Shown here: positions 1 through 61,199 of the stretch, piece after piece
How positions within the stretch are numbered: position 1 is the first letter of the stretch
How the letters are laid out: each line of letters starts with the position of its first letter
Virus record (IMG/VR): IMGVR_UViG_3300025141_000092
Location: 1-61,199 of that record
Length of the DNA stretch: 61,199 nucleotides
Reading direction: 5' to 3' (one strand)
DNA from: a virus
Lineage: Duplodnaviria; Caudoviricetes
Notes under the pieces: model-generated
Database searches by the model: none
Told to the model about the DNA's origin: nothing
Seen by the model: only the letters and a program-made list of their open reading frames with translations
Program-made: the position numbers and the translations under genes

Positions 1-1658
1 CCCGATTGTTCTTTTCGAGAAGCGGTGTCCCTTAAAGCGGTAGTTGCTGTAGCAGTAACATCCTTTCTCCTTTTGGGGTCAGGTCCTGGGTTTTTCTTTG
101 AATGAGACTCAATATCGGAAGCAGCTTTTCGGTAAACCTTAGCACTTGCAATATCTTTGGCTGCTCTTTGTCCGTGACCATGTGCACTTATTGATTGACC
201 TGCTTTCTGTCTCTTTTGAGCTTCTCCCTGTCTGCCTTTAGTTCCATGAAACTTTCTGCCTCTGGTCCTAGCACGGCTTTCAGGGCTTCTTGTTTCAACT
301 AACTTGTTAACATATGCATTTGTGTAGTTCATTTGTGTTTCGTCCTCCATGGATTTATCTTTTAATTTTTGAGCAATAGCAGCTTCACCAGCCTTGGCTG
401 CTGTAGCTCCGTGTTTCCTAACTGCGGCTCCTGCTCTACCTCTCAGCTTGCCTAACTTACTACCCTTTCTAGCAGCTTTCGTGCCTCTAACAGCCTTCCC
501 TGCTTTAGCAGCATATTGTGCTCCCCTAGTACCTAAACCTGCTCCAGGGACTAGAGCGGCTGCATCACCTGCCATTTCCTTACCAAGCTCCTTTCTTCTT
601 TCTGGGTCTTTTTCACCACTTCTCTGTGTTCCCGCAATCCCTAGTGCAGCAGCGTCTCCTGCGGCTCCAACCCCTGGAACCATTCCTGCTACTCTGGCAA
701 CTTCTTTAGTTCCACCTAAAACCTTTCGACCTAGTTTAGTTTTGTCTGCTTTCTGAATTAATTTTTTAGCAAGGGATTCGTCAACGTCTGTAATATTCTG
801 CTTTGCTGCAAGTTCTGCTTTACGCTTCTCTTCTGCTTTCTTCTTTTCGGACTTACCTAGAACTTTTTTAGCAGCCATCCCTCCAACAGCCGCAACAGCC
901 CCAGTAGCTAATGCTCCTAGAATTTCATCCATTCGATAAGCTAAGTCCTTATAAGCTAAGAACTTATGATCTCTGATGCTACCGTGCTCTCGCTTATCAT
1001 CAGTCTCTTTTTGCTTGATTCCAACCCTACTTATGCGTGGACCTCCCCCTTTACCTGCTCTATTGTACTCTCCACTCTTAAGCTTCCTTGTCAAGTAAGT
1101 GCTTTTCATCCCTTTAGAAGGTTTAGTTTGTTTTGGCATTGTTATTTCATCCTTTCTTTTCTTTTCCGCTTTGTTGGCTTTGTCTATTGCTGCTTGATCT
1201 CGTTGTCTCTTTTCTTCTCTTCCTCTAGCAACGTCATCAGCGTGTTTCTTATTTGATCTATCACTTCTTCTTATTACTACACTATGCTTTCTTCTTTTTT
1301 TACCCTCAGGTGAGTTATGGTCAGTAGATAAGGAGGGTGATCGTCTGGGGTCATCAGCTTGATTAGAAGCACTAGCTCCAACTGCGGTCTTCTCTTTGTC
1401 TAAGGCAATTCTTTTCTGCTTTTCTACGCCCTCGTCTTTGCGATCTGCTGCTTTATCCATACGAGCTTTTAACCACTTCATAGCGTTACTATTGGCTCCT
1501 CTAACCTCTTCATGCTGCTGGAAATCTTCATCCTTTAACTCTACGCCTTTGATTGTACCTTTGTTTTTAGAAGCATAGAAGACATTCTCTCCTTGCTTAG
1601 AGCCGTACTCTTTTTTCATGTTCTTCATAATCTTTTTTCCTTTCTTGTTTAGTGGCAT
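1..1658 (-). CDS. Lys/Glu/Ala-rich putative internal head protein, 3'-truncated by the window edge (not in ORF track)
   Basis: ATG at 1658, 10 nt after the gp13 stop. Translates MPLNKKGKKIMKNMKKEYGSKQGENVFYASKNKGTIKGVE. Spot checks stay in frame at 932 (MDEILGALATG) and at 480-780. Its absence from the ORF track fits an ORF running off the window. Confidence 0.75.
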   Translation of the reverse strand, partial: MPLNKKGKKIMKNMKKEYGSKQGENVFYASKNKGTIKGVELKDEDFQQHEEVRGANSNAMKWLKARMDKAADRKDEGVEKQKRIALDKEKTAVGASASNQADDPRRSPSLSTDHNSPEGKKRRKHSVVIRRSDRSNKKHADDVARGREEKRQRDQAAIDKANKAEKKRKDEITMPKQTKPSKGMKSTYLTRKLKSGEYNRAGKGGGPRISRVGIKQKETDDKREHGSIRDHKFLAYKDLAYRMDEILGALATGAVAAVGGMAAKKVLGKSEKKKAEEKRKAELAAKQNITDVDESLAKKLIQKADKTKLGRKVLGGTKEVARVAGMVPGVGAAGDAAALGIAGTQRSGEKDPERRKELGKEMAGDAAALVPGAGLGTRGAQYAAKAGKAVRGTKAARKGSKLGKLRGRAGAAVRKHGATAAKAGEAAIAQKLKDKSMEDETQMNYTNAYVNKLVETRSPESRARTRGRKFHGTKGRQGEAQKRQKAGQSISAHGHGQRAAKDIASAKVYRKAASDIESHSKKNPGPDPKRRKDVTATATTALRDTASRKEQS

Positions 1659-50484: not shown

Positions 50485-52257
50485 CTATTTATTTATTTTT
50501 TCTAAATTACTTCTCTGTTTTTCAAGGATTCTATATAGGATCGCTTCTTTTTTTTCATTTAGAGTTTTTTTACCAATAAGCGACTCTATTCCTTGTGTTC
50601 GTTCTTCTGCCGTAGTAGTTGTTGGGGGTTGATTTTCCGCAGGCTCTTGTCCTCCTGCCTCTCCGTACCCTGGCCCAGCCATCTGTGCCGCTCCGACATC
50701 AGCCGATTGTTGATCTTGTTCTTCTTTCGTTTGTTGTTCCATTTCGTCTTTCATTCGTTCAATTTCTTCGTCTGTCATATCATAGTACTCTCTGTAGATC
50801 TCATCTTTAGAGAAAAGTCCTAGTTGCTGTACTGCTGCTATAACTCTAGTTTTTTGTTCGTCTAAATCGAGCTTTCTCTTTGCAGACATATCAGAAGGCT
50901 CGGGTAGTCTAATCCTTAGTTCTCTAATCAATAAAGCAGGAAATCCCTTTAATTGAAGATGGCGTTTAGCTATATTTTCTAATCCAACTTGTATATTTAC
51001 TTGAACTCTTTGAATTGTTCTTGCAAACTTAACATCAAGTTGAGAGAGGTTAGCCTTGCGCTCAGGAGAAGAGTCCTTCTCTACAATATAATCTTTAGGA
51101 ACCTTTAACGCCGCAAGAAGCTTATCACGATAATACCGCACATCTTCAATCTCACCTAAGTTTTGAGCACCAGGGAGCGTGTCAATCTTTGTCCCTGCTC
51201 CGTTCCTAGTAGGAACAAAGAAATCCTCGTCCATAGATAAGGGGTTATATCTTGCATCTATAGTACCTTGTCCTGAGTTATAAAATTTTTCTTTCTTAAA
51301 TTTCTGCTTAATGCGCTCAATAAACATCTCAGCTTTGCTTGTAGGAAGATTACCTGTATCTACATAAAAAATCCGTCTTTCGGGGGCTCTAGAAAGACGG
51401 TAAATCATCATAGCATCTTCCATCATTTTTAACGATCTAAAAACTCTATGACATAAAGCGGCAATCGATTTGCCGTATGGATAGAATACAGGATCTGAAG
51501 TATGAAGACGGAAATGAGCAATTTGATTTTTGTCTAAGCGAATATACTTAATAGGCTCTTCTGTATTATAAGTAGATTTATAATTAAATGTTTCATTATT
51601 GGGAACTTCTTGAAGAAAGTTTTTTAAGTAACCAAACTCATTTTCTACTCTCAAAACAAAGCTAGGATTAAGAATTTTAATTTTCCTAATACCCTGTTGT
51701 GGTTCATTTACATCTAAAATAAGCTCTGTAAAACAATCCCCATATTTCACAGTATTTCTTACGATATCCCATAAAAAAGTGTCTAATCTAATTTTATCAA
51801 ATAAAGCATTTATCTCATCTACTACCATCGAATTTTCAGAATTAATAGTCCATCTTTCATTTCTTGGACCTCTTTGAGTAGCGTCATCAGCATAAATATC
51901 AAAAGCTGCTCCAATTTCGGGATACTCATCCATCTCCTCATACTCTTTGTACCGTCTCTTACGGTTCATCTCCATTTGAGGAAGAACAGGATTTCTAGCT
52001 ACTCCTCCTACAGCAGGATGAGAAGGATCATTATCTTTTATTACATCTGTACTGGTAATAGTGTCCCCACCAAGAGAGGCACCACCTTGGTCCATTAATT
52101 TAAGGGCTTTTGCCTGCGCTGTTGATGCAAAGAATTTAGCAAAGAACTTCCCTAAAGGACCTGTAGGAGTGAAAAATGAGCCTCCTCGCGCTGCGGTTCC
52201 ACCAAACTCAGTATAACCTTCTTCTAATAATTCTTCTTTTTTTATTTCATCAGCCAT
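50485..52257 (-). CDS. gp20: Portal protein (gp20-like)
   Basis: MMEDAMMIYRLSRAPERRIFYVDTGNLP, EDFFVP, IDTLPGAQNLGEIEDVRYY and ALKVP motifs. Confidence 0.97.
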   Translation of the reverse strand: MADEIKKEELLEEGYTEFGGTAARGGSFFTPTGPLGKFFAKFFASTAQAKALKLMDQGGASLGGDTITSTDVIKDNDPSHPAVGGVARNPVLPQMEMNRKRRYKEYEEMDEYPEIGAAFDIYADDATQRGPRNERWTINSENSMVVDEINALFDKIRLDTFLWDIVRNTVKYGDCFTELILDVNEPQQGIRKIKILNPSFVLRVENEFGYLKNFLQEVPNNETFNYKSTYNTEEPIKYIRLDKNQIAHFRLHTSDPVFYPYGKSIAALCHRVFRSLKMMEDAMMIYRLSRAPERRIFYVDTGNLPTSKAEMFIERIKQKFKKEKFYNSGQGTIDARYNPLSMDEDFFVPTRNGAGTKIDTLPGAQNLGEIEDVRYYRDKLLAALKVPKDYIVEKDSSPERKANLSQLDVKFARTIQRVQVNIQVGLENIAKRHLQLKGFPALLIRELRIRLPEPSDMSAKRKLDLDEQKTRVIAAVQQLGLFSKDEIYREYYDMTDEEIERMKDEMEQQTKEEQDQQSADVGAAQMAGPGYGEAGGQEPAENQPPTTTTAEERTQGIESLIGKKTLNEKKEAILYRILEKQRSNLEKINK

Positions 52258-53786
52258 CGTAAATCTTCTACTTCTATTTGTCCATTTGAACCTCTATATG
52301 CATATTTCGTTTGCTTGGAAGGCATAGGTAATCCATCTTTGTGTGGAATTTTTGAGATATGCTCAAGAGGTGTAGTTTCTAATAAATTTCTATATAAATA
52401 TATAGCTAAGGCTAAACTCATAACCAAATCATCATGCTTTCCTCTTTCTGCCGTGGGCTTTCCTCCCTCATTAATAATAAAGGTTAAAAGCTCATCTGCT
52501 GTTCTTCCTGAGTTAATTTTAATTTGATTAGTTCGTATAGACTCTTCTAAAGTTGCTAGTAGTTGTTCTCGGTTTTGTGCTGTAACCTGAAATCCAAATA
52601 ACCCCCGATCATCAGCCCATATGTTTTCGTATTCTAAGTTCGTGTATAACCAATCAATCAGGTTATTTCCAATAGTATTTCGCTCACAAATTACGTGCGC
52701 TATATTATATAGCATCGCTTCAGTGCCTATAATTTCCGCAAACGTATTAATAGGAGTTTTATTTGAATAAAACTCAGCTACCTGTTGACCATTATAGGCG
52801 TTAATAATATGAAACGCTGAATAATCTCTGTCTCGACCTAACGCGACATCGCAAGCTAAAACATAAGTATAGTAAGGTTTTGGGTCTTGCCAAACCCTCA
52901 TTCGATTATTATATTTGGAGTAATAATCTTCACTTACATTTTCTACTACATCTTTTAAAATTTCTCCATCGATATAAGTATCCCCTGTACCTAAAAACGA
53001 GCACTCATACTCCTGGAGCCATTGTTTAACAGGCATGTTTGCTCGCGTAGTCTTTTCCCAAGCGTCCACGTTCAACCCCTTTTCTTCCATCTCTTTATAA
53101 AGTTCAGAGAAGCCTTCTTGTTTCTTATACTCTGGGTGATCGATCCATTCTATGTCAATCGCATTAAAAGAATTTTTATTTTCTAAAGCTTTGGTGTATA
53201 CATCATGATACCAATTACCAATACCGTTAACTGTAGAAAGTACAAATGCGCGACCACCCGTGGAGATAATTGGATAAACTGCAGCCCAGATAGTGTCAAT
53301 ATTTTCAATAAATGCAGCTTCGTCAATAATCAGCAACGATCCCGCAAGAGATCGACCTGACTGCTTTCCAGAAGGTCTGGATTTAATTATTGACCCAGTA
53401 TTCAGTTTTAACGTGTGCTTGTTATCTTCAGCTATTCCAGGTTTAAAAACTTTCGGTAGCTCATCATACATAAGTTTAATTCTATCTAACACCTCAGTAG
53501 CTTCTGTATCTCCTTTAGAGAGAATAACAACTTGCTTGTGTTTCTGGAAAATAATCATCCACAATGCGTAACTAGCTGCAATTGTGGTACACCCAGCCTG
53601 CCTAAATTTTCGAAGAATATTGAATCTATTAGTCTCTAGTGCATTTAGAATTGAGTGCTGGAAGGGGTACAGCTTAAAAGGTACTAATCCCCGAATAGGA
53701 TGGACCACCTTGATATAATTAGATATGAAGTAGATTGGGTCCTCTTTACATCTCTTAAATTCTTCGATTAATTCTTGTTTTTCCAT
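52242..53786 (-). CDS. gp17: Terminase large subunit (gp17-like)
   Basis: CKEDPIYF, PFKLYPFQ, KFRQAGCTT, IIDEAAF, STVNG, QEYECSF, CDVALG and HDDLVMS motifs; start moved to MEKQE (53786). Confidence 0.95.
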   Translation of the reverse strand: MEKQELIEEFKRCKEDPIYFISNYIKVVHPIRGLVPFKLYPFQHSILNALETNRFNILRKFRQAGCTTIAASYALWMIIFQKHKQVVILSKGDTEATEVLDRIKLMYDELPKVFKPGIAEDNKHTLKLNTGSIIKSRPSGKQSGRSLAGSLLIIDEAAFIENIDTIWAAVYPIISTGGRAFVLSTVNGIGNWYHDVYTKALENKNSFNAIDIEWIDHPEYKKQEGFSELYKEMEEKGLNVDAWEKTTRANMPVKQWLQEYECSFLGTGDTYIDGEILKDVVENVSEDYYSKYNNRMRVWQDPKPYYTYVLACDVALGRDRDYSAFHIINAYNGQQVAEFYSNKTPINTFAEIIGTEAMLYNIAHVICERNTIGNNLIDWLYTNLEYENIWADDRGLFGFQVTAQNREQLLATLEESIRTNQIKINSGRTADELLTFIINEGGKPTAERGKHDDLVMSLALAIYLYRNLLETTPLEHISKIPHKDGLPMPSKQTKYAYRGSNGQIEVEDLRWLMK

Positions 53787-53818
53787 AAAATTTACTGTCT
53801 TACTATTATAATTATAGT

Positions 53819-54511
53819 ATGAACATCTATGCATATATATGTACTCGATCAATAGAGGATATGACGGAGACTACAGATAAATTACTCTCTTATTTTGCCA
53901 AATGTGAAATTCAGTCATTCCTTCTTCCTAAAGCTTCCTCCATCTTTATCGCTTACCAACATGCATACTTAACTACTGCTCCTAAAGAAGACGATATCAT
54001 CATCATGTGTCATGACGATATAGAAATTAGAGAAAAACCAGAAATCTTTAAATCAAAATTGATTAAGTTATTATCCGAAGATAAAATTGGTTTTGTAGGC
54101 CCCGCAGGAACGTCACTTTTAGGTAGAGACGCTGTTTGGTGGAACCAGCAGCACTGGGCGATGAAGAAGCACCACGGACGAGTCTACCACTTAGACCCAC
54201 AGGGAAAAGAATACGAAACTTATTATGGAAAACCTAGCGAAGTTGTTGTTTTAGATGGATTATTTTTAGCAACAACAGGAAAAGTTATAGAATCTGTAAG
54301 TCTTACAAAGCCCCCCTACTTTTCAGGGGAATGGGACTTCTATGATCTCCACTATACCTCTTCTGCCTTCTTACAAGGCTATAAAAATAAAATAATTGAT
54401 ATAAATATATTACATAACTCCAGAGGAGAACTTGTTGGCCGAGATTCGTGGCATAAAAATCGAGATTCCTTCATAAGACATACAAAACTTCCTTTAAGTG
54501 TTGAAAAATGA
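53819..54511 (+). CDS. Glycosyltransferase family 2-like protein
   Basis: MCHDDIEI (DxD-type), IGFVGPAG, VVVLDGLFLAT and WDFYDL motifs. Confidence 0.8.
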   Translation: MNIYAYICTRSIEDMTETTDKLLSYFAKCEIQSFLLPKASSIFIAYQHAYLTTAPKEDDIIIMCHDDIEIREKPEIFKSKLIKLLSEDKIGFVGPAGTSLLGRDAVWWNQQHWAMKKHHGRVYHLDPQGKEYETYYGKPSEVVVLDGLFLATTGKVIESVSLTKPPYFSGEWDFYDLHYTSSAFLQGYKNKIIDINILHNSRGELVGRDSWHKNRDSFIRHTKLPLSVEK

Positions 54512-55405: not shown

Positions 55406-56083
55406 TTAAGGTTTAAGAGGTCTAGTTGGCCTTGGCGTCCCAGGGGGCCTCGTTGGAGGTGGCTTTCTTAGCGGTCGCGTAGGTACGGTAATCCTATCCC
55501 CAACTCCTCCTCTAGGGGTAGTTGGAAGAGGGGTTGGAATTCTATCTTCTTGTACAGGCTTCGCTGATCTAGTGGGAATTATTGGTCTACGTTCAATTAT
55601 TCTAGTAGAAGGCTCCTGACATACACGAACACAATCAGCTAAAGTATTATAAATCCCATTAGGGTCTTTTGTACATACTAAGTCCCGTACATTGCAGGCC
55701 CATTTCTGTATAGAACCATGGCCTTGGGGAGTGGTTGGGGGAGCAAACGCAGGAAAATCATTAGACCCCATATCTTCGGGGACAGGCCGAGGGGTGGTCC
55801 CCGTTGGTTGCGGACTCCCGCACCTCGCGTTGCAGGCCCTAAGATCCTTATACGTCGCACCATCCGCCACTTTTACACATTCATAGTAAGTTAGATCAAC
55901 TCCCGACTGCCTGCAAATATACCCAGGGGTGCGCGGTGGAGGCGGCGGAGGCTCAATACAAACCCTCTCACAACCTTCTTTAGTGTTATGAACGCCACCC
56001 ACTCCGTCCGCAGGCACACAGGCCCAGGTGCTCTCATCGCACCACCAACCGTGATTCCCAGGCCACTCAGCACTATGACTCAT
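55406..56083 (-). CDS. Free-standing protein with three four-Cys modules and a Pro/Thr/Arg tail
   Basis: WWC...C...CERVC, YIC...C...CNARC and WAC...C...CVRVC; same module as in 8026-15531. Confidence 0.75.
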   Translation of the reverse strand: MSHSAEWPGNHGWWCDESTWACVPADGVGGVHNTKEGCERVCIEPPPPPPRTPGYICRQSGVDLTYYECVKVADGATYKDLRACNARCGSPQPTGTTPRPVPEDMGSNDFPAFAPPTTPQGHGSIQKWACNVRDLVCTKDPNGIYNTLADCVRVCQEPSTRIIERRPIIPTRSAKPVQEDRIPTPLPTTPRGGVGDRITVPTRPLRKPPPTRPPGTPRPTRPLKP

Positions 56084-56649
56084 CCTGTCCTTGGAGGGAT
56101 TGTAGGCCTGGGAGAGTCCCTCCTCTCATAGTCAGATTGACAGTTTTCTTGACATTCAGCTAAAGTACTGTATACTCCACTAGGAGGTATAGCGCCATAG
56201 TTCACGAACACTTTTTTACATGTTCGGAACTTGCCGATGAATCCTCCTGTCACAGGGGACTCCTTACAGACCCAATATTCCCTAGCTGCGCCACCTGTGA
56301 TAGGAGATGTTGGTGGAAGACAAAAGCTCTCGCATGCATCTTTAGTGTCATATTGACTTTCGTTAGGTCCAAAGAGTTCTGCTGGTTGTGCTATGCATCC
56401 CCATACACCCTGCGTATTTACACAACGCCACTTATCTCCCCTCCTTGGCAATCTGATTTGGTTTTCACAAAACGTCTGGCATTCACTCAAAGTCGCATGA
56501 CCGTCAAATCGAGACCCGTACTTCCCAACACAACGTCTCTCCAGAACGTTTGACTGCGCGTTGAAGCCCCAGTCCACGCAGTGATACCTAAACGCGCCAC
56601 CTAAGCCTTGCCCCCCTGGCCCTTGAGGAAATTGAGGAAATTGAGCCAT
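56080..56649 (-). CDS. Free-standing protein with three four-Cys modules
   Basis: WRCVNTQGVWGC...FGPNESQYDTKDACESFC is close to modules 1-3 of the giant protein. Confidence 0.75.
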   Translation of the reverse strand: MAQFPQFPQGPGGQGLGGAFRYHCVDWGFNAQSNVLERRCVGKYGSRFDGHATLSECQTFCENQIRLPRRGDKWRCVNTQGVWGCIAQPAELFGPNESQYDTKDACESFCLPPTSPITGGAAREYWVCKESPVTGGFIGKFRTCKKVFVNYGAIPPSGVYSTLAECQENCQSDYERRDSPRPTIPPRTG

Positions 56650-57329: not shown

Positions 57330-58277
57330 TCAAAATCCGAGCCCCGCACGCATGCTACACCAACAAGGTTGTACATTTTGTCCATCAGACCCCTCGTTAT
57401 AACCTCTACTTCGCAGCCCAGGGGGCGTATAATCACCCAAAGGATTCCGATACCGTTCGGCAATACCTAATCCAGGAACCACATCTTCAAGAACATCTCC
57501 TAGACCAGGATCCTCACTACCCTGCATATCAGGCATCTCCATATCCCTATCTTTGCCCTCCCACTTACACAAACAATTAACTAACTTTCCCATCATACCT
57601 TTCATAGCAGGATTTTTAACCACTTCTTGCATAAAATCAGTTCCACAACTGTCAGTAATGATTCTCCCGACATGACCAATTACGCCGAATGTTCCTCCGC
57701 CCTGTCCAATAACACCTGTAAGATCAGCCAAATCTCTCCTAAATGTAATCTCAAAATCTACGTCTTTAACTTCTCTTTTGAAACAACAACAATTTGGTCT
57801 AGGGTCACCAGTGTACTCCCAACCAGGGGCAGTCTCAGGAGGTTGGTAATTAGGACAATCCTCAATTTCACTCACATCTGCTTCGCATGGTTGAGCACAC
57901 TGTTCCCAGTTAACATGATACCATGACATATCACACTGAGCGACGGCGACCTGCGGTCCGCCACCAAAGTGAACTAAAGGTTTTACTTTTCCTTTTTCAG
58001 ACTCAGGATACTCACCACCCATACAATCAAGTGTTATCCCTTTAAATGCGTTAGGCCAGGGTGTAAATTGAGGTCGTATTGTTTCTCCCGACTCAGGAAT
58101 GCACATCTTACTCCCAGTAATAACTGAAAACCCCGCGATTTTATATCGTTTTTCCCCTCCTATATCGTATATGTTATGAAGAGGATAGATCTTCAAGTCT
58201 CCTTCAACTTCTGTTACTATTACACAACACTGATTCGTGGATTCTGCTTCCGTTGTTGGTATATCTCCAAATGCCAT
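57330..58277 (-). CDS. Cys-rich hypothetical protein
   Basis: AGGAG RBS; CTACATA motif upstream; many Cys including CC, CCC and CxC. Confidence 0.65.
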   Translation of the reverse strand: MAFGDIPTTEAESTNQCCVIVTEVEGDLKIYPLHNIYDIGGEKRYKIAGFSVITGSKMCIPESGETIRPQFTPWPNAFKGITLDCMGGEYPESEKGKVKPLVHFGGGPQVAVAQCDMSWYHVNWEQCAQPCEADVSEIEDCPNYQPPETAPGWEYTGDPRPNCCCFKREVKDVDFEITFRRDLADLTGVIGQGGGTFGVIGHVGRIITDSCGTDFMQEVVKNPAMKGMMGKLVNCLCKWEGKDRDMEMPDMQGSEDPGLGDVLEDVVPGLGIAERYRNPLGDYTPPGLRSRGYNEGSDGQNVQPCWCSMRAGLGF

Positions 58278-58800: not shown

Positions 58801-58837
58801 GAAATCACCTTCGGTTGGCCGAGTTTTGCCCCTTATA
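58801..58837 (+). repeat. 37-bp dispersed repeat, copy 1 (copy 2 at 61163-61199)
   Basis: GAAATCACCTTCGGTTKGCCGAGTTTTGCCCCTTATA, one mismatch between copies. Confidence 0.9.
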
Positions 58838-59504: not shown

Positions 59505-59827
59505 TGCAACTACTCACTGACAAAATCAAAAAGGCTTTGCCTTCTCTCTACTCCACTGAAGACATTCCTTGCGAGGATAAGCAGATCGTGGTGAAATTCT
59601 TCAACCCCCTGGGCTCTCAGACTTGGGAGATCACAGAGGGATCATACCAAGAGGACATGGACACATGGCTGCTCTTTGGTAAGTGCGACCTTGGCTATGG
59701 TGCTGAGTGGGGATATGTTACCCTCTCTGAGCTTGAGTCCGTAGATGTTGGCTTAGGTATGGGCATTGAGCGTGATATCTGCTGGAACTCTCACCTCCAC
59801 GATGAATGGAACACGATGGAGGCTTGA
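59504..59827 (+). CDS. DUF2958-like protein
   Basis: VVKFFNPLGSQTWEITE, LFGKCDLG, EWGYVTLSEL and IERD motifs; start reassigned to MQLLT. Confidence 0.8.
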   Translation: MQLLTDKIKKALPSLYSTEDIPCEDKQIVVKFFNPLGSQTWEITEGSYQEDMDTWLLFGKCDLGYGAEWGYVTLSELESVDVGLGMGIERDICWNSHLHDEWNTMEA

Positions 59828-59871
59828 ATTAGCCAATAACCCCCCAATCATGGCTCTATTGCCCGATTGGC

Positions 59872-59913
59872 GGCCGCCCCGCCCGTCCTAACCCCTTGTG
59901 GATCAACAACTTA
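59872..59913 (+). repeat. Dispersed repeat, copy 1 (copy 2 at 61081-61122; degenerate copy near 58740-58766)
   Basis: GGCCGCCCCG-N5-CCTAACCCCTTGTGGATCAACAACTTA, with the last 27 bp identical. Confidence 0.9.
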
Positions 59914-59946
59914 CGATACCGTACCCACATTTCTTTTATTTAGTGC

Positions 59947-59975
59947 TTGCAAGTGCTCCCAGCCCGTGGTATAAT
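59947..59975 (+). promoter_or_regulatory. sigma70-type promoter
   Basis: TTGCAA-N17-TATAAT with an extended -10 TG. Confidence 0.8.
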
Positions 59976-59986
59976 GTGTCCTGTTG

Positions 59987-60008
59987 ATGAGGGTCGTACC
60001 TCATTTTT
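59987..60008 (+). terminator. Small terminator-like hairpin
   Basis: ATGAGG-GTCGTA-CCTCAT followed by TTTT. Confidence 0.5.
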
Positions 60009-60020
60009 CCCCTTTTCTGC

Positions 60021-60049
60021 TGGACAGCCAGCCCACCATTTGGTATAAT
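60021..60049 (+). promoter_or_regulatory. sigma70-type early promoter, leaderless
   Basis: TGGACA-N17-TATAAT-N6-ATG (60056), extended -10. Confidence 0.85.
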
Positions 60050-60055
60050 ACACCC

Positions 60056-60424
60056 ATGGAAAAACGAACTCAAAGAACTCCGCAAGAGATCATCGCGGAG
60101 ACAGAGGCCAAGCTGGCTCGCCTTCAAATGAAGGCAGCAAAGGCTGAAGCCAAATCAAACCCCGCAGTTGCTGATCTCTACGAGCAACTGGACACCGTCA
60201 ACAAGGACATTCGTGAGGCCAAGAAGGGCCTTGGGTCTGGTCCCCAATCGTTCGATGCTCGGATTGAGAAGCATCAGGTCTGGATCGAGAAGATCGAATC
60301 AGCCCGTGAGGACGCGCAGGAGCTTCTTGGCTTGGCCGAGGCGCAAAAGACTGCTCTCACCTCTGAGATCCAAACGGTGATCTCTTCAATCGTCACCCCT
60401 AAAGAAATCTCCGAAGGGGCTTGA
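60056..60424 (+). CDS. Coiled-coil early hypothetical protein
   Basis: Start reassigned to MEKRTQRT at the predicted +1. Confidence 0.75.
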   Translation: MEKRTQRTPQEIIAETEAKLARLQMKAAKAEAKSNPAVADLYEQLDTVNKDIREAKKGLGSGPQSFDARIEKHQVWIEKIESAREDAQELLGLAEAQKTALTSEIQTVISSIVTPKEISEGA

Positions 60425-60449
60425 ATTCTCCGAGGGGCCATGGTATAAT
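60421..60449 (+). promoter_or_regulatory. sigma70-type promoter driving the 60476 gene and the ribozyme locus
   Basis: TTGAAT-N17-TATAAT, extended -10. Confidence 0.8.
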
Positions 60450-60475
60450 GGTCCCTCACAACAACAAAGGAAAAG

Positions 60476-60694
60476 ATGCTCAACAACATCACCAACATCG
60501 TGCGCTCGAATCAGAACGCAGTCATGGTCAAGGTCGGTAGTGCTACGAATTCGGTGTACACGATCTTTGATCTCCGCTCACGTAGCAACAGCTACACAGG
60601 CACTCTTTCAGGGGCCAAGTCCGCTTGGAATCGGAAATACAAAAACTCTAGGCAATTCGTTGCCAAGGGTAACCACAGGTATCTTACAGCCTAA
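60476..60694 (+). CDS. Small basic early protein
   Basis: AAGGA RBS; own promoter. Confidence 0.7.
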   Translation: MLNNITNIVRSNQNAVMVKVGSATNSVYTIFDLRSRSNSYTGTLSGAKSAWNRKYKNSRQFVAKGNHRYLTA

Positions 60695-60702
60695 AGGGTA
60701 AG

Positions 60703-60799
60703 ACTCGTCTGGGCGAGTATAAACAGCCATCAGGCCCAGAGCGTCCCAAAGGGAATGGAGAGAATTGCGATAACGCTACCTCTTCCCTGCGGGGGTTGG
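60703..60799 (+). ncRNA. Pistol self-cleaving ribozyme
   Basis: P1 ACUCG/CGAGU; loop UCUGGG pairs with CCCAGA (pseudoknot); AUAAACAG linker; P2 CCA/UGG; GCG core; P3 UCCC/GGGG extended by AGGGAA/UUCCCU; G-U cleavage site at 60795/60796. Confidence 0.88.
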
Positions 60800-60804
60800 A
60801 AATT

Positions 60805-60980
60805 CGGAGAGGCATCGAGAGGCATCTTGATGCGGGTCGCATAATAAGAGTTTTATGGCTCTCTAGTGCATCGTAGCCTGAACCCAGAGCGGAATCCCGT
60901 GAGGTATGGCGCGAGTTGTGATCGAACCAGTCATATGGTAGCTTGCAGGTAATACATTAAACCCTGTCCCTTTCTCTCCG
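60805..60980 (+). ncRNA. Candidate structured tRNA-like RNA
   Basis: Closing stem CGGAGAG/CUCUCCG; arms GCAUC/GAUGC, GGGU/ACCC, AGAGUU/GGCUCU, CC-GUGA-GG and GCAGG/CCUGU; no ORF listed in the track. Confidence 0.5.
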
Positions 60981-60990
60981 TCTTTCCTTT

Positions 60991-61065
60991 CCCCTTCACT
61001 GCTCCCGCTCTTTTTCTACGCATTATCAATTGAAAAAGAAAACGAGCAGTCGAGGGGTTTTCTTC
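60991..61065 (+). terminator. Long imperfect hairpin followed by a U-rich tract
   Basis: CCCCT/AGGGG, ACTGCTC/GAGCAGT and TCTTTTTC/GAAAAAGA stems, then TTTTCTTC. Confidence 0.55.
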
Positions 61066-61080
61066 TTGACAGATTTCGGG

Positions 61081-61199
61081 GGCCGCCCCGAGCCCCCTAA
61101 CCCCTTGTGGATCAACAACTTAGGTGCTGAACCAATCTTAGGACTACCCAAAAGAAATCAGAGAAATCACCTTCGGTTTGCCGAGTTTTGCCCCTTATA
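61081..61199 (+). repeat. Second copies of both dispersed repeats
   Basis: 61081-61122 matches 59872-59913; 61163-61199 matches 58801-58837. Confidence 0.9.

Follow-up and report, generated by a model that had tools for sequence, protein, structure and literature searches.

In an uncultured marine T4-like phage, an active pistol ribozyme probably serves to process the transcript of a single early transcription unit from within. As judged by comparison of related sequences, it most likely cuts one transcript into two parts, the message of a small gene (o72) and a separate non-coding RNA (ncRNA). The ribozyme itself is an unremarkable pistol, detected by the model of its class. New is its context, in that it consistently starts 2–10 nt past the stop codon of one particular orphan gene and is followed immediately by a conserved structured RNA. 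This context recurs in about 90 independent marine contigs, with one ribozyme per phage genome located just after the same small gene, and in two thirds of the loci the pistol directly marks the 5′ boundary of a new RNA with strong structure.

The window, i.e. the whole stretch of DNA analysed, is an entire IMG/VR virus record, linear and 61,199 bases long, with a CheckV completeness of 55%. Its minus strand carries T4-type structural genes (major head protein phrog_138, portal, baseplate wedge and the large terminase at 52242–53852). The rightmost part, beginning at about 58,960, is a block of small plus-strand genes preceded by sigma-70-like extended −10 promoters. For the window's terminase, the highest identity to that of a GenBank phage is 34%, and hundreds of relatives at 69–87% identity exist in uncultured viral contigs (576 of 590 candidates confirmed). 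A blastn search of 59700–61199 against GenBank phages gave no match. On the minus strand, three ORFs of 225, 189 and 315 aa (55406–56649 and 57330–58277) are rich in Cys, Pro and Trp and show recurrent C..C motifs as well as proline-rich linkers. No Pfam family was found for the 315-aa ORF, and among the fetched loci neither it nor the 189-aa ORF has a relative, while the 225-aa ORF has one weak match, in locus L011.

The features of the unit are located as follows.

60421..60449, plus strand: predicted sigma-70-type promoter, TTGAAT, 17-nt spacer and TG-extended TATAAT (consensus scan, 10 of 12 matches)
60476..60694, plus strand: o72, gene of a conserved orphan protein of 72 aa (ORF list; stop codon TAA at 60692–94)
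60703..60800, plus strand: pistol ribozyme (full-length RF02679 match and covariation)
60703–07/60714–18, plus strand: P1, ACUCG/CGAGU, all standard pairs
60708–13/60735–40, plus strand: 6-bp pseudoknot, UCUGGG/CCCAGA, all standard pairs, joining the P1 loop with the P2–P3 junction
60719–26, plus strand: linker AUAAACAG (AUAAA-type)
60727–29/60797–99, plus strand: P2, CCA/UGG
60733–34 and 60741–43, plus strand: G-G and GCG
60744–47/60791–94, plus strand: P3, UCCC/GGGG, enclosing 43 nt
60748..60790, plus strand: P3 interior, 43 nt, an imperfect extension with helices 60750–54/60784–88 and 60759–62/60780–83 and a GCG-AUAA-CGC hairpin at 60767–76 (MFE fold)
60795/60796, plus strand: 2-nt P3–P2 junction and predicted scissile site G60795/U60796 (position in the Rfam alignment)
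60796..61067, plus strand: conserved structured ncRNA of about 270 nt (RNAalifold consensus, covariation)
60806–11/60974–79, plus strand: ncRNA helix H1, the closing helix
60812–20/60825–33, plus strand: H2, a fully covarying hairpin with an invariant GGCA loop at 60821–24
60834–36/60968–70, plus strand: H3
60839–42/60866–69, plus strand: H4
60847–50/60861–64, plus strand: H5
60884–85/60903–04, plus strand: H6
60889–92/60897–900, plus strand: H7
60945–49/60963–67, plus strand: H8
about 60968–61000, plus strand: pyrimidine tract of the ncRNA
60991..61067, plus strand: terminator-like hairpin (helices 9 and 10), 60991–61002/61046–57 and 61009–16/61032–39, then UUUUCUUCUU at 61058–67

A first-pass annotation, made from the letters alone, had described a pistol ribozyme at 60703–60799 and had pointed to the Rfam pistol model as a check. 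Scanning of the whole window with cmscan yielded a single match at the gathering score, Pistol (RF02679) at 60703–60800 on the plus strand, with 60.1 bits against a cut-off of 34.5, an E-value of 1.8e-08 and coverage of model positions 1–68 of 68; the search of the record on its own likewise gave 60.1 bits. Searching 14 control genomes with RF02679 returned no match. The helices, linker, GCG and scissile site had all been placed correctly on the sequence, and so had the start of P1 8 nt past the TAA stop codon (60692–94) of the 72-aa ORF. By position in the Rfam alignment, G60734, G60741 and G60743 correspond to G33, G40 and G42 of env25, and G60795-U60796 to its G53-U54; structural work on env25 describes these as active-site residues (PMC7027511). 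At 60731 the conserved U of the Rfam consensus is replaced by C in the window; this position varies among the relatives. With the pistol class the window element shares the P1 hairpin, the 6-bp P1-loop pseudoknot, the AUAAA linker, P2, P3 and the 2-nt G-U junction. It differs in that P2 has three standard pairs plus one G-A, and in that P3 carries 43 nt of extra, partly conserved structure, at a place where the class model permits a variable loop.

For a comparative analysis we assembled a set of o72 loci from the window, 24 IMG/VR loci and the best 80 of 351 confirmed metagenome loci. The set comprised 105 loci with 89 distinct sequences, marine going by their names, and 96 of them have at least 110 nt 3′ of the stop codon. 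A simple pistol descriptor matched 90 of these 96 loci, and L116 was recognized as pistol by Rfam (63 bits), which gives 91 of 96. The five loci without an intact pistol are L099, L107, L109 and L113, which have plain hairpins, and L174, which has an internal deletion. The four with plain hairpins indicate that neither o72 nor the phage strictly needs the ribozyme. P1 begins 2–10 nt 3′ of the o72 stop codon in 93 of 94 loci. Four relatives were searched over their entire records, two of which are rated 100% complete at about 130 kb; in each, the o72-linked pistol is the only one, which makes it a dedicated element rather than general punctuation between genes. The deletion of L174 (2230–2265) starts within the pistol, after GACAUUA, and reaches as far as the 3′ strand of helix H2 in the ncRNA. 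Lost with it are the pseudoknot partner, P3 and the cut site, altogether two thirds of the ribozyme; L174 is either a naturally occurring defective variant or a product of misassembly.

Three of the loci (L006, L197 and L213) proved to be one contig of 130,604 nt, a 130.6-kb relative with o72, pistol and ncRNA. The same contig is also filed in a species-genome collection under a Prochlorococcus single-cell assembly record. This hints, from one cell only, at Prochlorococcus as host of the phage group, which would be an ecologically important one. Another small RNA lies outside the window, 1–2.3 kb downstream of o72 in relatives: 81–83 nt long, it scores 55–76 bits against the Rfam tmRNA model (RF00023) in L006 (3956–4036, plus strand), L005 (10544–10624, minus strand), L093, L099, L103, L107, L108 and L113. 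These matches rest solely on tRNA-like acceptor and T-arm ends; in place of the mRNA-like part, about 300 positions of the model, there are 9–13 nt. From its sequence this RNA looks like a conserved mini tRNA-like element of the phage group.

Covariation was counted in 64 aligned pistols, 63 of them distinct, for the pairs of P1 and the pseudoknot and for three pairs each in P2 and P3. Among the 63 distinct relatives, 94.3% of the cells were paired and 12 of 17 pairs had changed on both sides, with compensatory changes in each of P1, the pseudoknot, P2 and P3. None of 500 shuffles reached any of the five observed measures, and controls with slid partners were paired at 49.1% at most. P1 was paired at 99.7%, with two pairs changed on both sides, and the pseudoknot at 95.8%, with four, percentages that are inflated for these two helices because the descriptor demands that they are paired. 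The informative part of the count is the alternation of pair types, such as one pseudoknot pair that is GC in 35 sequences and AU in 28. A19–A21 and G39-C40-G41 of the alignment are invariant in all 64 sequences. Most relatives have GU as junction and some have GA; this fits the rule, as given in the published class description, that its length is fixed at 2 nt while its identity varies (PMC4604425). Covariance model and compensatory changes in all four pairing elements thus bear out the first-pass annotation and support the assignment of 60703–60800 as a genuine pistol ribozyme.

In the Rfam alignment the window has a 41-nt insert in P3. This insert type is shared by 23 distinct sequences, which are 95% identical in it and have one covarying pair, G60751-C60787. 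The P3 interiors of other relatives, 10–49 nt long, are unrelated to it. In several of them P3 is cut off in the Rfam alignment and the real helix is long and covarying, as in UCCCCAAGGG/CCCUUGGGGG of L104 versus UCCCUGAGGG/CCCUCAGGGG of L101. Since the P3 loop is drawn as variable in the class consensus (consensus figure of PMC7027511), the long P3 of the window falls within the class. A short hairpin, UCCC-AAA-GGGA (60744–54), is also present in the sequence and had been proposed as a competing off state; the nested MFE fold favours the long P3. The z-score of that fold, −0.92, is not significant, as expected for a nested fold, which cannot include the pseudoknot. G60751 is replaced by A in seven sequences, and in six of these seven C60787 has changed to U. 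The resulting A-U pair preserves the long P3 and costs the short hairpin a pair, so that on this thin comparative evidence the off-state reading appears unsupported.

The gene upstream of the ribozyme belongs to a family with 24 IMG/VR loci and 351 confirmed metagenome loci out of 417 candidates, and 17 residues are invariant across 53 sequences. o72 has no Pfam or PHROG family and no tblastn match in GenBank phages, and in the ESM Atlas it falls in ‘hypothetical protein’ clusters only. Among 1.84 billion proteins, only 27 representative clusters matched at an E-value of 0.001 or better. An AlphaFold2 model (pLDDT 81.3) has four strands and one helix, and a Foldseek search against the PDB found no fold match for it (best E-value 1.4). 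We considered o72 as a mini GIY-YIG nuclease and rejected this assignment: in a comparison of the profile with PDB sequences I-TevI (1ln0_A) reached an E-value of 0.34 only, no GIY-YIG chain was among the Foldseek matches listed and there was no Pfam match. Relatives of the 146-aa protein encoded upstream of o72 were found by tblastn on the fetched loci; as sole query against IMG/VR this protein gave no confirmed relative.

Ahead of o72, the −35 sequence and TGGTATAAT of the predicted promoter are kept in L005 and L006. Among 68 distinct upstream regions from relatives, 55 have a TTGnnn-16..18-TAnnnT site 25–48 nt ahead of the o72 start. These data suggest that 60421–60449 acts as a promoter, and its sigma-70 type makes it plausible that o72 is an early gene. 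At the other end, the hairpin at 60991–61067 shows compensatory changes in 7 of 17 pairs, and the window and L005 differ compensatorily; the U run that follows is short in some relatives. Transcription probably terminates at this hairpin and U run, near 61067. Promoter and terminator-like hairpin would then frame a unit of about 610 nt with o72, the pistol and the ncRNA.

The stretch between ribozyme and terminator has the properties of a structured RNA. RNAalifold predicted 54 pairs from 24 sequences, of which 24 have compensatory changes. Counted on the same alignment from which the structure was derived, 98.6% of the cells were paired, against at most 59.6% paired and at most five covarying pairs in the slid controls. 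On four of five measures none of 500 shuffles reached the observed value; on the fifth, further pair types, 443 of 500 did. A profile search found the ncRNA in 66 of the 105 o72 loci and nowhere else in the fetched loci, and full-length matches begin at the cut site, except in the deletion variant L174. Mean pairwise identity across 23 loci was 91% for the 5′ core of the pistol, 62% for the P3 interior and 94% for the first 17 nt past the cut, compared with 81% for the o72 coding DNA. Conservation rises sharply at the predicted cut, and the stretch that follows is more conserved than the o72 gene.

The plus strand of 60800–61029 contains no ORF of at least 30 aa. In cmscan of 60400–61199 with E-values up to 5, no Rfam 15 family was found for the ncRNA; chance matches of the long hairpin to miRNA precursors scored 16–21 bits against cut-offs of 63–84. 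The ncRNA motif GGGTCGCATAAYAAGRG occurs 31 times in 185,579 species genomes. One of these matches is the 130.6-kb relative, and the other 30, in unrelated taxa, were judged to be chance because a rough estimate expects more by chance. Of six matches in IMG/VR, four are o72–pistol–ncRNA loci and two are chance occurrences inside coding sequence. In one marine RNA-library run, 0.05 of the sampled words were present. A single assembled 156-nt contig from this run covers 60819–60960 with 90–95% likeness and places a relative's copy of that stretch in an RNA library; it may stem from DNA in the library and cannot show ends. Pairing of the o72 ribosome-binding site with the pyrimidine tract of the ncRNA, a cis-repression that cleavage would relieve, was also considered and rejected, as no specific signal was obtained: the longest complementary run had a mean of 7.23 nt with the own RNA and 7.09 nt with the RNAs of other loci (26 loci).

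Downstream of the cut, the loci are not uniform. No match to the window-type ncRNA was found in 29 pistol-bearing loci; some of these contigs end early and others differ downstream. L100, L102, L103, L104, L110 and L116 have other short RNAs with strong terminators 6–314 nt past the cut. In L114 (2741–2803) and L198 (about 2120–2185) the 3′ strand of pistol P2 is AUGA and its ATG opens an ORF (86 aa in L114), so that cleavage would yield a message starting 1 nt ahead of the start codon. Since the downstream content varies while o72 stays, the general role of the ribozyme may be to end the o72 message and to start whatever follows. L170 and L183 (about 2320–2560) keep the ncRNA 5′ end (GGAAAUUCAGAGAGG), the 3′ tract and the terminator and have a different core. 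The motifs of this core, CAGGUAA..UUACUGGAA..GGUAGAAAGACG, are common to the post-pistol RNA of L101 and L104, and L104 also has a T-arm-like hairpin, GUCGGGGGUUCGAAACCUCGAC. By these variants, together with L106, the ncRNA may be modular.

A 35-nt element, GAAATCACCTTCGGTT(G/T)GCCGAGTTTTGCCCCTTA, is present in two copies on the plus strand of the window, at 58801–58835 and 61163–61197, with none expected by chance. Two 130-kb relatives each have a single copy of its 27-nt core, CACCTTCGGTT(G/T)GCCGAGTTTTGCCCC. The element contains a 5-bp hairpin followed by UUUU, and three inspected copies (58801–35, L005 and L006) each immediately precede the start of a small ORF; it may be a phage-specific control site.

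The following model, which covers cleavage in vivo, transcript limits and purpose, is what we infer from these data. Host RNA polymerase would initiate at the sigma-70-type promoter (60421–49) and produce one transcript with o72, the ribozyme and the multi-helix RNA of about 270 nt, stopping at the long hairpin and U run near 61067. Once the 3′ strand of P2 (60797–99) has been made, the ribozyme could fold into P1, pseudoknot, P2 and long P3. The predicted cut between G60795 and U60796 would proceed by Mg2+-assisted internal transesterification, with G60741 as the general base and a metal ion at G60734; residue roles and cleavage chemistry are taken here from what class work describes for pistol (PMC7027511 and PMC4604425). 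The upstream product would be the o72 mRNA with the ribozyme body and a 2′,3′-cyclic phosphate at its 3′ end. The downstream product would be the ncRNA with a 5′-OH at U60796, 10 nt ahead of its first helix. Pistol is suited to such a release because nearly the whole ribozyme lies upstream of the cut and only UUGG(A) is left on the downstream product. Message and stable RNA could thereby have separate fates, with different decay, independent lifetimes and folding of the RNA free of ribosomes and of the translated message. The 5′-OH of the ncRNA would be unlike the triphosphate or monophosphate ends sensed by bacterial decay enzymes. The first-pass annotation had already suggested that cleavage parts the mRNA from a downstream ncRNA, and the comparison argues for it, as a covarying, conserved RNA starts at the cut site.

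An extension of this model appears distinctly improbable. It would make o72, pistol and ncRNA a self-processing ribonucleoprotein operon in which the basic o72 protein binds the RNA freed from its own message and in which the terminating ribosome, via the gap of 2–10 nt between stop codon and P1, gates folding of the ribozyme, so that release of the RNA is timed by o72 translation.

Alternatively, the ribozyme might serve o72 itself, as a 3′-end-forming element that sets the stability of the message and hence its dose or timing, with the downstream content incidental and interchangeable. We consider this unlikely. It would agree with o72 being the constant partner of the pistol (91 of 96 loci, spacing 2–10 nt) and with the variable downstream content, which is the window-type ncRNA in 66 of 105 loci, or other short RNAs, or an ORF starting in P2; bacterial ribozymes have also been proposed to give transcripts differing stabilities, as a review puts it (PMC6765202). 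However, within the group of the window no part of the unit is conserved more strongly than the stretch starting at the cut (94% versus 81% for the gene), and the downstream RNA is under strong structural selection. Moreover, a plain terminator would suffice to form the 3′ end, as in the four o72 loci without pistol. Serving o72 and releasing the ncRNA are not mutually exclusive and could go together.

Quite improbable is the alternative that 60796–61067 is a cis-regulatory leader, attenuator- or riboswitch-like, of the following small zinc-ribbon-like gene and that the pistol only trims its 5′ end. The RNA does end in a hairpin and U run like an expression platform, the weak U run of several relatives would permit read-through, the hairpin loop is unusually conserved, and L005, L006 and L117 have a small Cys-rich ORF no more than about 100 nt further on. 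Yet no Rfam riboswitch or leader family was found at E-values up to 5, and a non-exhaustive search found no covarying antiterminator pairing. In addition, the 35-nt element lies as a separate conserved unit between the hairpin and the next ORF and its other copy (58801–35) precedes another small ORF, so that this element may be the next gene's own control site. Finally, it is extremely improbable that the pistol match is a decayed or inactive relic without function. Such a reading could point to the C at the consensus U (60731) and to the loss of two thirds of the ribozyme in L174. Against it stand a score well beyond the family cut-off, the retention of every catalytic position, compensatory changes in each of the four pairing elements among 63 distinct sequences and a single conserved copy per complete genome.

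The association of pistol ribozymes with phages has already been published, as stated by Harris and co-workers (Harris et al., 2015; PMC4604425), and the role of pistol and of most self-cleaving ribozymes of bacteria and phages is called unknown in reviews (PMC6765202). With release of the ncRNA as the preferred reading, the pistol class gains a concrete and testable candidate for a natural job, namely making the 5′-OH end of a phage ncRNA and uncoupling this RNA from the mRNA. Two orphan parts are added as well, an RNA family of about 270 nt without Rfam match and a family of 72-aa proteins without known fold. In a literature search by titles and abstracts, the present arrangement of gene, ribozyme and ncRNA was not found described; the gene-association data and supplements of Weinberg et al. 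2015, on the pistol class, may list this group.

The glmS ribozyme, mentioned in PMC6154101, resides in the 5′ UTR of a bacterial message, depends on a metabolite and sits ahead of a coding region, whereas the pistol of the window sits ahead of an ncRNA, and we know of no ligand dependence shown or suggested for pistol. The likeness between the two is that a 5′-OH generated by self-cleavage changes the fate of the downstream RNA, and would do so here. Closer in setting are the HDV-like theta ribozymes beside tRNAs in gut phages, in which, as far as the account in PMC10879173 goes, a self-cleaving phage ribozyme likewise frees a neighbouring structured RNA from a longer transcript. Theta ribozymes belong to another class, cut at their own 5′ end and have a tRNA as partner, whereas the partner of the pistol described here is an orphan ncRNA.
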